Part shown: positions 5,627 to 35,120 of the stretch, piece after piece
Position numbering within the stretch: position 1 is the stretch's first letter
Layout: each line of letters opens with the position of its first letter
Source of the DNA: an uncultured Candidatus Saccharibacteria bacterium
GTDB taxonomy: Bacteria; Patescibacteriota; Minisyncoccia; Minisyncoccales; PEYH01
DNA: 47,958 nucleotides
NCBI GenBank assembly: GCA_964616145.1
Contig: CAZTRD010000007.1
Location: forward strand, 1 to 47,958
Direction of reading: 5' to 3'
Program-made: the position numbers and the translations under genes
Notes under the pieces: model-generated
Seen by the model: the letters and a program-made list of their open reading frames with translations, nothing else
Database searches by the model: none
What the model was told of the DNA's origin: nothing

Positions 5627-5705
5627 CTTTTGTTTGATGGATTGCATAAATGATATAATAGTATTAATATTCAATGTATTGGTTCTTTATATCTAAACGC
5701 GGATA

Positions 5706-5756
5706 TTGTTGTGCCGCTTTTGGTATATAAAATATATATTAAAAGCGGCACAACAA
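5706..5756. repeat. Perfect 16-bp inverted repeat with 19-nt AT loop
   Basis: TTGTTGTGCCGCTTTT (5706-5721) pairs with AAAAGCGGCACAACAA (5741-5756). It ends directly at the RBS GAAAGGAG (5757-5764) of the G+C-rich ORF. Confidence 0.85.
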
Positions 5757-5769
5757 GAAAGGAGCGGTG

Positions 5770-6141
5770 ATGGGAGACAAAAGCAAAACGATCAAGTTGG
5801 CAGTAGTCGGCCATGGAGCGAGGGCCAGAAGGCAAGTCCTGAAGATCGTTCCAATCACGAACTACTTCAGAGGAAATGAGAGATCGGTTCTCTTCGACTA
5901 CCTGAGGCCAAGAGGCGCCTCGCTCACCACAAAAAGGTGGGCGATCGCTAAACGTATCAAGAGATTGGATGCTCTACCCGAAGGGGTAGATTTCCTTCTT
6001 CTTCTTGGGTCCGACCAGGAATCAAGCGCGATCGTTTGGAGGTATGGCAGGTATCTGATGTTAGCGGACAGCGCAAGGATACCAAGATACGAGCCATTCT
6101 TCTGGATTGTCGTTTCGGTCGGAGAGGAACCAATCAAGTAA
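5770..6141 (+). CDS. Hypothetical protein in G+C-rich block A
   Basis: The ORF track starts at GTG 5767. ATG 5770 has better spacing to GAAAGGAG. Composition clearly differs from the flanks. No motif recognised. Confidence 0.4.
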   Translation: MGDKSKTIKLAVVGHGARARRQVLKIVPITNYFRGNERSVLFDYLRPRGASLTTKRWAIAKRIKRLDALPEGVDFLLLLGSDQESSAIVWRYGRYLMLADSARIPRYEPFFWIVVSVGEEPIK

Positions 6142-6237
6142 ACCTGCATCCGCGCGAAGTTCTGACGGGGCCCCTAATGGCTCCGTCAATTCTTTAAGAT
6201 ATTTTCATTTTTACTCTTTTCCTGTATAATCAGTTGT

Positions 6238-7215
6238 ATGTCTGCCATTGAGGCGAAAAACCTGGTAAAGAGATTCAACAGCTTAACAGCTGTTGATGAT
6301 TTGTCTTTTGAGGTAAAAGAAGGAGAAGTTTTTGGGCTATTGGGTCCTAACGGAGCAGGAAAAACAACAACAATTAAAATGCTGACTACCCTCATCCCTT
6401 GTACTAGTGGAAGCGCAAGGGTTTTTAATTACGATATTGTAAAACAAAAGGGTAAAGTAAGGGATAATATTGGGATAGTATTTCAGGAGCCGGCCTTGGA
6501 TAATCGTTTGACAGGATATGAAAACCTTGATCTTCATGCCAGATTGTACGGACTTTCTAGGATCTTAAGAAAAGAAAGAATTAAAGAAGTTCTTTCTTTG
6601 GTTGGTTTGGAAGAAAAAGCCAAGGTTTTGGTAAAAAACTATTCTGGAGGAATGAAAAGAAGATTAGAAATTGCCAGGGGCCTAATGCATTATCCCAAAG
6701 TATTGTTTTTGGATGAGCCAACCTTAGGGTTGGATCCCCAGACAAGAAGAAATATTTGGGATTACATTAAGAAGTTAAACCAGAAGGAAAAAATTACAAT
6801 AGTTTTGACAACTCATTACATGGAAGAAGCTGATAGCCTATGCGACAGAATTGCTATTATTGATTTTGGAAAGATTGTGGCCTTGGATACCCCCAAGATG
6901 TTAAAGAACCTTTTGGGAGGAGACGTGATATCTATTGAGGCATTTCCCCAGGAAGCTGCCTTCGAAATCTTTAAAAATCTTCCTTGGGTGAAAAAGATCA
7001 AGATTCACAATGAATTCATTCATTTGATGGTAGAGCAGGGAGAGCAAAAGCTTCCTCTACTCATTCAGATAGATCAGGAAGAAGAAGGATTTACAATGAA
7101 GACAATTAATTTAAGAAAACCAACATTGGAAGATGTTTTCTTAAGCTTTACCGGAAAAATGATCAGAGACGAAGAGAATCAGAACGGGGATAGCATTAAA
7201 CATTTTCATCCATAA
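6238..7215 (+). CDS. ABC transporter ATP-binding protein (ABC-2 / DrrA-like)
   Basis: Walker A GPNGAGKTT, signature YSGGMKRRL, Walker B LFLDEPT, H-loop TTHYMEE. Confidence 0.9.
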   Translation: MSAIEAKNLVKRFNSLTAVDDLSFEVKEGEVFGLLGPNGAGKTTTIKMLTTLIPCTSGSARVFNYDIVKQKGKVRDNIGIVFQEPALDNRLTGYENLDLHARLYGLSRILRKERIKEVLSLVGLEEKAKVLVKNYSGGMKRRLEIARGLMHYPKVLFLDEPTLGLDPQTRRNIWDYIKKLNQKEKITIVLTTHYMEEADSLCDRIAIIDFGKIVALDTPKMLKNLLGGDVISIEAFPQEAAFEIFKNLPWVKKIKIHNEFIHLMVEQGEQKLPLLIQIDQEEEGFTMKTINLRKPTLEDVFLSFTGKMIRDEENQNGDSIKHFHP

Positions 7216-7217
7216 TT

Positions 7218-7988
7218 ATGGTATCAAGGGATTTACAAACAATATATGTAATGTGGTCAAGAGATGTGAAGGGATTTTTCCGTTCAAAAGTCAGATTAAT
7301 TACCACCCTTATCGTTCCATTCTCTTTGCTATTCTTTGTTTCTTTTGGTTTTAGCTCAGGATTTAGATTGCCAGGGATGCCGGATAATATTAAATATCTG
7401 GATTTTGCAGCCCCGGGAATTATTGGAATGACAATGCTTTTTGGATCAATCTTTGCTGGAATTTCCGTATTGTGGGACAAGGAATTCGGATTCTTAAAAG
7501 AAATGATAGTTGCTCCTGTGCACAGGTGGGCGATTGTATTAGGTAGAATAGCCGGGGGAGTGACCACCGGATTTATCCAGGGTCTTTTGATTCTTCTACT
7601 CGCTTTATTAATGGGATTTAAGGTCTTAAATCCATATGGCATAGCCCTTACATTTCTTTTCATGATTCTGATAGGGGTGGGATTTGTAGGTTTTGGAGTG
7701 GCCTTAGCTTCTATTCTTGAAGATACCCAGGCATTTTCCTTGATAATGCAGATAATCATTTCCCCAACCATATTTTTATCAGGAGCATTCTTTCCATTAA
7801 GCAGCTTATCCTGGTGGATTCGCTTGATTTCCATGGCTAATCCCTTGGTATATGGAGTGGATGGATTAAGGTTCGGCTTGATCAATTCTTCTCAATTTCC
7901 TTTGTATCTTAATATATCAGTATTAGTTGCTTTTGATATTTTAATGATAATTTTAAGCTCTTGGTTTTTCTCAAAAACTAAGGGATAA
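7218..7988 (+). CDS. ABC-2 type transporter permease
   Basis: 256 aa with about six hydrophobic segments. It starts 3 nt after the ATPase gene. Confidence 0.85.
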   Translation: MVSRDLQTIYVMWSRDVKGFFRSKVRLITTLIVPFSLLFFVSFGFSSGFRLPGMPDNIKYLDFAAPGIIGMTMLFGSIFAGISVLWDKEFGFLKEMIVAPVHRWAIVLGRIAGGVTTGFIQGLLILLLALLMGFKVLNPYGIALTFLFMILIGVGFVGFGVALASILEDTQAFSLIMQIIISPTIFLSGAFFPLSSLSWWIRLISMANPLVYGVDGLRFGLINSSQFPLYLNISVLVAFDILMIILSSWFFSKTKG

Positions 7989-7995
7989 TGTAGAC

Positions 7996-8379
7996 ATGGA
8001 TAAAAAGAAGTTTATCATCCTTTCTTTATTTGTGATAGGATTTGTTGCCATCATTTTAATTTCCAGCAGGACATACAAAGTAGATTCCAGATACAGGCAA
8101 CCAGCTGAAACAGAGACAGATCCTTTCCAAGGAAAAGAATGTTCTGATCTTGAATGCGTAGCTGATAGGTTTTTGAATTGCAAAATAGCCAGCTATGGAA
8201 ATGGAAAGATTACGGTTTTAATATACGGGCTGGTTGATGGCAAATGCTATGTCAAGGTCAGCAAAGATACGACAAAAACTTGCTATCTCTCCCAGAAAAA
8301 CTTAAGCATTCCTTTACTAAATCAACTTTTAGGAAACGATGAAGGCCTGGAAAATGTAGTGGCGCAAGAATGCAGATAA
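7996..8379 (+). CDS. Membrane-anchored secreted protein, unknown function
   Basis: 127 aa with an N-terminal hydrophobic anchor and 6 Cys. Terminator-like AACAGC...GCTGTT TTTG downstream. Confidence 0.5.
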   Translation: MDKKKFIILSLFVIGFVAIILISSRTYKVDSRYRQPAETETDPFQGKECSDLECVADRFLNCKIASYGNGKITVLIYGLVDGKCYVKVSKDTTKTCYLSQKNLSIPLLNQLLGNDEGLENVVAQECR

Positions 8380-8411
8380 TTAAGGAAACAGCTTACGGTA
8401 ATAGGCTGTTT

Positions 8412-34205: not shown

Positions 34206-34230
34206 TTGTAAAGGTGTGAAAAACTTTTGA

Positions 34231-34258
34231 TTGACTTGCTACGATGTAAAGCTAAAAT
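34231..34258 (+). promoter_or_regulatory. sigma70-like promoter upstream of the rod-like RNA
   Basis: TTGACT (34231-34236), 16-nt spacer, TAAAAT (34253-34258). Confidence 0.55.
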
Positions 34259-34264
34259 GTAGCT

Positions 34265-34400
34265 GGGACCCTGAAAAGTTCTGATCTCATTCCGGCACTA
34301 TCTTATTTCTTGGGAATCCTAATTCGGATAGCCCGAGGGCTGTCCGTGCGGACACCCACTAGGATTCTTACCCGGAATAAGTTATCAGAAGACAGGGTCC
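34265..34400 (+). ncRNA. Candidate 136-nt rod-like structured RNA, class unknown
   Basis: Nested stems: GGACCCTG/CAGGGTCC (34266-73 with 34393-400), TTCTGAT/ATCAGAA (34279-85 with 34384-90), ATTCCGG/CCGGAAT (34289-95 with 34372-78), GAATCCTA/TAGGATTC (34314-21 with 34360-67). Apical hairpin GGATAGCC-cgag-GGCTGTCC. Followed by TTTAGTTTGATT. Confidence 0.4.
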
Positions 34401-34413
34401 TTTAGTTTGATTA

Positions 34414-34442
34414 TTGACATAAATATATGTGTGTGATATAAT
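34414..34442 (+). promoter_or_regulatory. Consensus sigma70 promoter of the block F cassette
   Basis: TTGACA (34414-34419), 17-nt spacer, TATAAT (34437-34442). Confidence 0.7.
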
Positions 34443-34738
34443 GCGAATTAGGTTAATTGAAGTTATGATTAACCCGTTCTTTACCTAACTGAGGTTGTTC
34501 CCGTCTCGGGAGCAGCCGAATGAGAGTAATCCTTATTCTTGTTCGTATGCTCCCTGAGGCGAGATACGCTTCAGGGTGAAAATAATGAGAACCCCCTCAT
34601 CTTCTTCACCACCCGGAGGTGGGCGGCCGAGCTACCTAGCACGGCCGCCCACACACTCTTCTTTCTTTATTTGAGCCCAACAGAACTGGTGGTCTGTGGG
34701 TTGAAAAGAGGAAAGAAGAAAGGAGAGGGGGAAACGAA

Positions 34739-35065
34739 ATGTGTAGGTGCGATCGGTGCGGCAGATTCATCCAGATTCGCCTTGCTATCGAAGGATCCTC
34801 TGGATTGTTCTGCGTGCGCGATGCTTTGCCGTTAGCAAAGTGGAAATTCGAGGATATTTCGCTAGTCCTCGAACGTAAAGAAATCAAGAAAAGAGGAGGG
34901 GGGAAGAGTTTCATCCTTGAAGTGGGAGAGGGAATTTGGAGAGTTCCCATTCCCAAGGGGACAAGATTCCGAAGGGACAAGAACAAGAGGATAAAGATTC
35001 CTCTGAGCTTTCCCTTGGGAGATGGCAGGAGGTGTCTCGCCGACATCATCTTGCCTCGTGTGTGA
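34739..35065 (+). CDS. Hypothetical basic protein with N-terminal CxCxxC (block F)
   Basis: 108 aa, MCRCDRCGRF..., RBS AAAGGAGAGGGGG. Preceded by a ~290-nt hairpin-rich leader. No family recognised. Confidence 0.4.
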   Translation: MCRCDRCGRFIQIRLAIEGSSGLFCVRDALPLAKWKFEDISLVLERKEIKKRGGGKSFILEVGEGIWRVPIPKGTRFRRDKNKRIKIPLSFPLGDGRRCLADIILPRV

Positions 35066-35076
35066 CGGAACATTCA

Positions 35077-35120
35077 TGGAGGCCTTGTGGTCAGCGTACC
35101 CGGGCCTCCAGCTTCATTTT
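35077..35120 (+). terminator. Rho-independent terminator of the block F cassette
   Basis: TGGAGGCC (35077-84) pairs with GGCCTCCA (35103-10), then GCTTCATTTT. Confidence 0.65.

Follow-up and report, generated by a model that had tools for sequence, protein, structure and literature searches.

G+C-rich transcription units, most of them with excess RNA folding, between the housekeeping genes of an AT-rich candidate phyla radiation bacterium

Introduction

Islands of G+C-rich non-coding RNA (ncRNA) genes in AT-rich genomes were reportedly described by Klein, Misulovin and Eddy in 2002. Here we describe six G+C-rich blocks (B1–B6) lying between the housekeeping genes of an AT-rich contig of an uncultured Candidatus Saccharibacteria bacterium (GenBank assembly GCA_964616145.1, contig CAZTRD010000007.1, positions 1 to 47,958 of the forward strand; this whole stretch of 47,958 nucleotides (nt) is hereafter called the window). 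The blocks are native, vertically inherited units with a maintained composition, and it is probably selection for stably folded RNA that has shaped them. Peaks of G+C content marking structured RNAs, and searches directed at long G+C-rich intergenic regions, have been presented previously (PMC6429828, PMC8723152, PMC11109978). Three parts of the blocks fit the ncRNA islands exactly: a small RNA downstream of ndk (B6a), the leader of the following B6 transcript, and the RNA of B5. The blocks differ from such islands in being mostly protein-coding, in having a raised synonymous G+C content, and in having messenger RNAs (mRNAs) about as over-folded as the ncRNAs; furthermore, the organism comes from lake water and thermophily is no obvious driver.

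Three other bacterial systems offer themselves for comparison. Staphylococcus aureus RNAIII is a dual-function regulatory RNA of about 514 nt which encodes the delta-haemolysin of 26 amino acids (aa). The B5 RNA resembles it in being abundant, highly folded and about 600 nt long, with a ribosome-binding site and an open reading frame (ORF) of 32–37 aa in three lineages, but it has no relationship to RNAIII in sequence or in Rfam, only its 5' end of about 60 nt is conserved, and the translation of the ORF is putative. Like genomic islands and integron cassettes, the blocks are discrete stretches of atypical composition between housekeeping genes, one of them adjoining a tRNA gene, and show some presence/absence variation; unlike these they have neither an integrase nor attC or att repeats, and they have promoters of their own, are syntenic and undecayed, and lack donor homologues. 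The B4 slot recalls type I toxin–antitoxin systems in its single-helix peptides of 30–59 aa, which have ribosome-binding sites of their own and differ among the relatives; in this window a HicA-like pair adjoins the slot as well. In contrast to the type I systems, the B4 transcript is not over-folded (fold z-score against dinucleotide-preserving shuffles, hereafter z, −0.2), and no antisense RNA to it was identified, antisense promoters not having been looked for.

In Plasmodium falciparum, the RUF6 elements are G+C-rich transcribed ncRNA elements of a very AT-rich genome, situated near fast-evolving surface-protein genes (PMC5175341). Also the blocks are isolated G+C-rich transcribed elements in an AT-rich genome, but RUF6 is a eukaryotic multi-copy family with a common sequence, while the block sequences are unique. 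In the literature searched, coding genes combining a maintained synonymous G+C content with ncRNA-like folding, the B5 RNA, and the ndk-downstream RNA family all appear to be undescribed.

Results and discussion

Composition, boundaries and assembly of the blocks

Within the block limits drawn in the preliminary description of this DNA, the G+C contents of B1–B6 were 0.526, 0.528, 0.537, 0.505, 0.545 and 0.489, respectively, against 0.342 in the remaining window, which confirms the six G+C-rich blocks in AT-rich surroundings reported there. Together the blocks cover 9% of the length of the window. The G+C content at third codon positions (GC3) of the block ORFs was 0.51–0.67 as compared to 0.29–0.37 in five housekeeping genes, and the first and second codon positions of the blocks are, like the third, atypical in composition.

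Between 20500 and 35500, the best four promoter-like sites were those at 34414 (12/12), 21955 and 21951 (11/12, a divergent pair) and 31533, and three of the four drive block genes. Among the promoters proposed in the preliminary description, 34414 and the divergent pair at 21923–21983 proved strong and the sites at 8412 and 34231 gave weaker matches, while the site at 26965 fell below the scan threshold. Most of the blocks close with a G+C-rich hairpin and a T-rich tail, also this in agreement with what had been seen earlier. The blocks are self-contained units, genes and RNA genes themselves, most with a recognisable promoter and terminator; they are not spacer DNA placed between genes.

An independent assembly (L001) was identical to the window over 1,088 aligned bases spanning the left edge of B3 and had the same gene order from the methyltransferase gene through ndk. 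Contigs of two further DNA runs spanned the junctions of B3, B4 and B5 with a flat depth of about 6.9 both inside and outside the blocks, and three related genomes from other samples had the same architecture. The independent assemblies and the flat depth exclude the chimeric junctions that had been a concern, and the probability that the blocks are an assembly chimera or contamination by a co-assembled high-G+C organism, in favour of which nothing speaks except the composition itself, is close to nil.

The slots and their divergence in related lineages

The contigs of the relatives were chosen by a ranking of UvrA identity and represent three to four related lineages in total; a genome scan with UvrA found one close relative, the other 79 loci being distant. 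G+C-rich islands were present in the slots of B3, B4, B5 and B6 in L007 (UvrA identity 93%) and L087 (85%), in the slots of B1 and B2 in L092 (ABC ATPase identity 88%), and in the slot of B2 in L093 (80%). The same blocks at the same positions in relatives, the finding which had been named as evidence against acquisition, thus occur in L007, L087 and L092. When patchiness was tested, only B3c was missing from L007, and B5 was missing from the more distant L089, a lineage which carries the ndk-downstream RNA.

In comparison with L007, the synonymous divergence (dS) of both B3a and B3b was 0.90, the neighbouring genes having a dS of about 0.6–1.6, and the ratio of non-synonymous to synonymous divergence (dN/dS) was 0.14 and 0.11, respectively. 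With a dS like that of their neighbours and a low dN/dS, B3a and B3b are co-inherited, genuine protein genes. Also in B1 and in the B6 ORF the non-synonymous differences were far fewer than the synonymous ones.

The identity of the block genes to L087 at four-fold degenerate sites was 0.19–0.23, indicating saturation. The GC3 of the blocks was 0.59–0.71 in L087 and 0.51–0.67 in the window, L007 and L006, while by a two-state decay argument a neutral foreign gene would be expected to keep a GC3 of about 0.43 at most after such synonymous turnover. Parsimony over three lineages assigned 76 weak-to-strong and 97 strong-to-weak changes to the third positions of B3, which implies that GC3 would settle at about 0.54, the value of the genome being about 0.27. 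Since GC3 is held at saturation and the changes are nearly balanced, the G+C content of the blocks is a maintained state and not a fading foreign signature. Housekeeping substitutions polarised by L087 showed an implausible weak-to-strong excess, which parsimony produces artefactually at saturated sites, and these counts were left unused.

Mobility, donors and protein families

Within the slots, some content does turn over. The B1 slot of L092 holds a 124-aa gene unrecognisable in comparison to B1, and the homology of L092 stops exactly at the B1 promoter and terminator. The B4 and B5 slots were not alignable by blastn between close relatives, and the absence of B3c from L007 is a precise indel. 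This is the pattern that would be left if the slots were recombination hot spots in which promoter–gene–terminator cassettes are swapped by an unrecognised mechanism, the high G+C content being that of the cassette pool. Such swapping is unlikely, as neither an integrase or recombinase nor common boundary motifs or repeats were found, B1 is kept at 60% identity in the L007 lineage, and the B5 orthologues share their promoter and 5' end. Furthermore, the identity of B3a drops to 27% in L087 and the gene is still collinear, so that runaway divergence can mimic non-homology. Pfam scans detected no integrase, transposase or recombinase among the approximately 45 ORFs of the window, in line with the absence of mobility genes noted in the preliminary description. 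The blocks shared no common repeats, boundary motifs or target duplications, the only matches being their own terminator palindromes. In contrast to integron arrays, the blocks are scattered and have their own promoters, and the terminal hairpins of different blocks are unrelated. The cassette-insertion mechanism considered in the preliminary description is therefore left without sites, repeats or enzymes, although some turnover within the slots exists.

The large protein databases were searched with B3a and B1, and with these alone among the block proteins. Among 5.8 billion proteins, B3a matched only three clusters, its own and those of two relatives, both from the same clade, and B1 had a single real homologue (60% identity, from a sample of the L007 lineage) among 1.84 billion representative proteins. 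Viral contigs scanned with B3a, B1 and B3c contained no relatives. In Pfam and NCBIfam searches, none of the block ORFs or their orthologues had a match above the threshold; below it lay matches to DUF7867 and to a type VI secretion immunity lipoprotein model as well as WD40-like ones. At the gathering score, Rfam 15 recognised only two tRNAs in the window; when B3, B5 and B6 were scanned by E-value, nothing but microRNA and small nucleolar RNA matches at chance level appeared.

In the blocks, 67% of the arginine codons are AGA or AGG, and GGA is the top glycine codon, which points to the native codon preference shifted toward G and C. Codons ending in G and codons ending in C are both enriched, and because both rise, translational selection was rejected as the cause. 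The blocks were also considered as targets of a diversity-generating retroelement, and this was rejected, as there is no reverse transcriptase and the G+C shift covers whole genes.

The first explanation offered for these blocks was that DNA had been acquired repeatedly from a high-G+C donor, possibly the episymbiont's host, and later placed under local promoters. With one such donor or several, the G+C content would be an un-ameliorated foreign signature. Acquisition would account for the atypical composition at three codon positions, for orphan genes without a family, and for content which varies among close relatives (B3c, the B1 slot of L092 and the B4 peptides). Acquisition is nevertheless improbable. 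The slots are syntenic and occupied in three lineages, the dS of B3a and B3b equals that of the neighbours, GC3 is undecayed at saturated sites, and the 76 and 97 changes in B3 are nearly balanced. Neither B3a nor B1 has homologues outside the clade, or in the viral contigs, and the arginine and glycine codons are native-like. Finally, ordinary G+C-rich genes fold less than the blocks, as described below.

Excess folding of the transcripts

Twelve flanking coding segments of the window had z between −0.1 and −2.9, overall about −1. In the blocks, z was −5.5 for the B1 transcript, −7.1 and −4.6 for two segments of B3a, −6.9 for B3b, −9.9 for B3c, −3.6 for B5, −4.7 to −4.8 for B6a, −10.6 for the B6 leader and −4.4 for the B6 ORF. 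Most of the block orthologues in L007, L087 and L092 had z from −3 to −10, among them B5 (−5.6 in L007, −4.9 in L087), the B6 leader (−10.2 in L087) and the B6 ORF (−6.0 in L087). In the B2 family no such values were reached, and in L087 the 5' part of B3a (−0.9) and one of the two strands of the B4 slot were further exceptions. The controls of the relatives ranged from +0.2 to −2.5, while the B1-slot gene of L092 had −3.6. In 16 ordinary coding segments of 50–62% G+C from unrelated bacteria the median z was about −0.7. Ordinary G+C-rich genes are thus without extreme folding, and imported ordinary genes would look different from the blocks.

In a permutation test, the real substitutions were compared with position-shuffled ones in how well they keep the pairs predicted for the window. 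Preservation of pairs was significant in the B3a coding sequence (p-values 0.0005 and 0.001) and in the B6 leader (p-values 0.0005 and 0.017), and one of the eight controls reached a p-value of 0.018.

The preliminary description had also suggested that structured RNAs raise the G+C content of the ORF-poor parts. This was borne out for B5, B6a and the B6 leader, and the evidence supports extending the explanation, unexpectedly, to most of the protein-coding blocks.

A neutral or mutational origin, by G+C-biased gene conversion or by template-switch mutation making hairpins in heavily transcribed DNA, was weighed against these results. The synonymous rise of both G and C and the unreduced dS agree with it, and so do the hyper-folding regenerated without conserved pairs in the B6 ORF and B1 and the high G+C content without structure in B2 and B4. 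Biased gene conversion in bacteria is usually credited with far smaller shifts than the change in GC3 from about 0.3 to 0.6 observed here. The block boundaries coincide exactly with transcription units, and the pair-preserving substitutions in B3a and the B6 leader, as well as the covariation of B6a, point to selection on structure. We regard the neutral origin as unlikely, although it still competes with selection on folding, as does a certain turnover of cassettes in the slots of B1, B4 and B5.

RNA in metatranscriptomes

In run X7, when the listed pieces are tallied, the blocks account for about two thirds of all RNA-contig bases in the window; over its last 10 kb, where there are no blocks, the four runs examined had no RNA contigs. 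Wherever a metatranscriptome contained B5, no other transcript of the window was as deep. The stronger RNA signal of the blocks probably reflects real abundance.

Short, very deep or chimeric matches were also seen at 19511–19831, in the thiamine pyrophosphate (TPP)-binding region of pyruvate:ferredoxin oxidoreductase, and at 32256–32287, in an SDR gene. These are cross-matches from other organisms at conserved enzyme motifs.

Proposed selection on RNA folding

The most probable cause of the maintained composition would be selection on the RNA itself for dense, stable folding, for which G and C are required. Dense folding may raise the steady-state level of a transcript in a cell where the messages are otherwise AU-rich and poorly folded, and the selection would act on a set of fast-evolving units restricted to the lineage, many of them genes for the envelope proteins of an episymbiont. 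By inference, what is selected is the folding or the stability of the RNA.

Several observations weigh against this reading. B2, with its family (z from −0.4 to −2.0), and B4 (−0.2) are G+C-rich without excess folding, and folding is therefore not the whole cause. Neither B3b nor B1 nor the B6 ORF showed significant preservation of pairs, and the covariation of B3b with three orthologues was no better than in shuffles. The dS of B3a and B3b is not below that of the neighbours, contrary to strong site-specific RNA constraint. The RNA evidence consists of assembled contigs, and those outside the blocks sit on locally G+C-richer parts of ordinary genes; for the weaker signals, the contrast of the blocks could thus be inflated if the preparation of the libraries or the assembly favoured G+C-rich sequence. 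The depth of B5 is too high for such a bias to be the full explanation. Given the misfit of B2 and B4 and the unreduced dS, selection on folding explains the blocks only in part.

A wider reading, which we hold only tentatively and consider doubtful, is that G+C-rich over-folded transcripts form a distinct class in AT-rich Paceibacteria, their composition being maintained, at synonymous sites too, by selection for RNA stability, and that the loci serve as cradles in which small secreted and membrane proteins arise de novo and then change very fast. The loci could act in this way because G+C-rich sequence has few stop codons. B5 with its barely conserved ORF of 33 aa would then represent an early stage, and B3a and B3b would be mature genes.

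Compositional islands are routinely read as horizontal transfer, a reading which here fails the tests of synteny, dS, stationarity, codons and homologues. What the islands appear to indicate is where the transcripts of an uncultured episymbiont are most visible. If this is general, the G+C profile together with fold z-scores would be a cheap finder of key RNAs and host-interface proteins in the candidate phyla radiation, the small orphan genes of which are otherwise opaque. The blocks would also offer a clear example from nature of bacterial synonymous G+C content and mRNA folding under selection, and as such bear on the long-running debate about the maintenance of G+C content. Three RNA candidates emerge: the ndk-downstream ncRNA family, the B6 leader and the B5 RNA.

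The B5 RNA

B5 contigs extending across 30934–31500 were present in eight metatranscriptomes, with a depth of 35–104 in three runs. In four further runs, B5 alone gave an organism-specific signal within 30500–35500. The adapters flank the B5 contigs in a constant orientation, the read-1 primer at the low coordinates and the read-2 adapter after about 31500, and the hairpin at 30890–30930 has a T-rich tail on the minus strand only. Taken together with the promoter-like sequence at 31539–31511, the adapter orientation and the tail indicate that B5 is probably transcribed from the minus strand.

No match to B5 was found in Rfam. Signal recognition particle (SRP) RNA, RNase P RNA, tmRNA and 6S RNA were considered for both B5 and B6a and rejected, as no model matched and the motifs were wrong. 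What B5 has in common with L007 and L087 is limited to the promoter and roughly 60 nt at the 5' end. Each of the three sequences, which are too few for covariation, contains a ribosome-binding site and a small ORF. In L089 (UvrA identity 73%) the slot is empty, uvrA and the RRM gene being only about 150 nt apart, and B5 therefore arose inside a narrower clade.

Strain variants with deletions of 1 and 2 nt were observed at 31089–31094, downstream of the small ORF, in both DNA and RNA runs. The deletions are consistent with this part of B5 being non-coding.

The RNAs of B6

B6a is a rod-like RNA without an ORF. A pattern scan of metagenome contigs gave 14 distinct homologues. All of the contigs concerned are AT-rich, and a promoter can be seen at most of the homologues. 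These include L007 (14703–14790), L087 (16067–16156) and L089 (14852–14939), and further homologues are in L097, L099, L102, L104, L107, L108, L112, L113, L114 and L118. The consensus of 13 folded sequences has 40 pairs, 21 of which show compensatory changes. No Rfam family matched B6a, 6S and SRP RNA included, and 6S RNA gave no match even at E ≤ 10; unlike 6S RNA (RF00013), B6a has no large bubble in its consensus fold, which forms an irregular rod. Kept across a Paceibacteria clade, B6a is well founded as a candidate new ncRNA family.

The second unit, B6b, starts with the leader of about 300 nt, which is kept in L007 and L087 and the start of which is still recognisable in L089. In the minimum-free-energy fold, its ribosome-binding site GGAGAGGGGG is paired with an upstream CCCCCUC stretch, and on this predicted fold the leader could control translation, in the manner of a riboswitch or otherwise. 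The B6 ORF is coding (proportions of non-synonymous and synonymous differences, pN and pS, 0.30 and 0.85) and is covered by RNA contigs.

The protein-coding blocks

The divergent units of B3 encode proteins with export signals, which were read from the sequence: a signal peptide in B3a, and the lipoboxes LIGGC and LLAGC in B3b and B3c, respectively. RNA contigs were present over B3a and, at 22009–22909, over B3b and B3c. The indel removing B3c from L007 lies cleanly between the B3b stop codon and the terminator, and B3c resembles B3b weakly (E 0.01). An AlphaFold model of B3a based on three sequences was unusable, with a mean predicted local distance difference test score (pLDDT) of 30.

B1 (GC3 0.59) had RNA contigs at 5758–6151. 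Against its homologue in L120, a contig of the L007 lineage, pN was 0.25 and pS 0.73. The stem-loop preceding B1 (Table 1), an observation read directly from the sequence, is kept in L120.

The B2 protein (transcript z −1.95) has a hydrophobic N-terminus, and an RNA contig was found at 8463–8887. The B2 slots of L092 and L093 contain very diverged homologues, recognised by eye from a common N-terminal ...QAIC motif and not recovered by tblastn; z in these three genomes is within the range given above for the family.

No RNA contig was seen over B4. The corresponding slot between uvrC and uvrA contains in L007 (7878–8645) transmembrane peptides of 34 and 59 aa and an ORF-poor structured unit (z −8.4), and in L087 (9471–9990) transmembrane peptides of 51 and 30 aa. 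In comparison with L007 and L087, the HicA-like pair (27250–27862) is in this slot in the present window only.

Table 1. Positions of the G+C-rich units and associated features in the window.
Feature	Position	Strand	Details
Weaker seventh patch	4116–4604	+	162-aa ORF, no family match, G+C 0.41–0.49
Perfect 17-bp stem with an all-AT loop of 15 nt	5708–5756	+	between tRNA-Arg and the B1 ribosome-binding site
B1, orphan cytosolic protein gene	5770–6141	+	123 aa; terminator hairpin 6163–6188
B2	8412–8927	+	promoter-like 8412–8440; 134-aa ORF 8481–8885; terminal hairpin ~8897–8927
B3a, secreted all-beta protein gene	21139–21951	−	248 aa; promoter 21951–21923; ORF 21897–21151; terminator 21165–21139
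B3b and B3c, lipoprotein genes	21955–22939	+	promoter 21955–21983; ORFs 22020–22481 (153 aa) and 22500–22874 (124 aa); terminator 22907–22939
B4, gene of a single-transmembrane-helix peptide	26997–27185	+	39 aa; GTG start; ORF 26997–27116; weak hairpin 27151–27185
B5 RNA, ~570–610 nt	30888–31539	−	promoter-like 31539–31511; 5' end ~31500; terminator hairpin ~30890–30930
B5 small ORF	31292–31191	−	33 aa; translation putative
B6a, rod-like ncRNA, ~139 nt	34262–34400	+	own promoter 34231–34258; directly 3' of ndk
B6b	34414–35112	+	promoter 34414–34442 (12/12); leader 34448–34738; 108-aa Cys-rich ORF 34739–35065; terminator ~35078–35112

Other features of the window

The seventh patch is a milder version of the six blocks. 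It had RNA contigs at 4240–4625 in run X7 and a z of −2.7, and its ORF has a partial homologue in L092 in which the C-terminal half is kept.

By Pfam, the ORFs of the window make up a typical gene set of the candidate phyla radiation with several toxin–antitoxin pairs, and include uvrABC, ndk and pyruvate:ferredoxin oxidoreductase genes. The window belongs to a genome of Candidatus Paceibacterota (Pacebacteria); its nearest named relatives are metagenome-assembled genomes of this group, and the window sequence was found in lake-water metagenomes. An operon at 12541–16192 encodes ribose-1,5-bisphosphate isomerase, form II/III RuBisCO and AMP phosphorylase; the RuBisCO/AMP phosphorylase pathway of nucleotide salvage is typical of candidate phyla radiation and DPANN organisms. 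In L092 (9851–11070), the RuBisCO large subunit was called as two ORFs of 224 and 182 aa, which may reflect a frameshift, a pseudogene or a sequencing error.

A Fic/DOC-family gene (37566–38510) is missing from L007 as a clean indel. At 4287–4873, L007 has an extra ORF of 182 aa between the CaCA transporter gene and uvrB.

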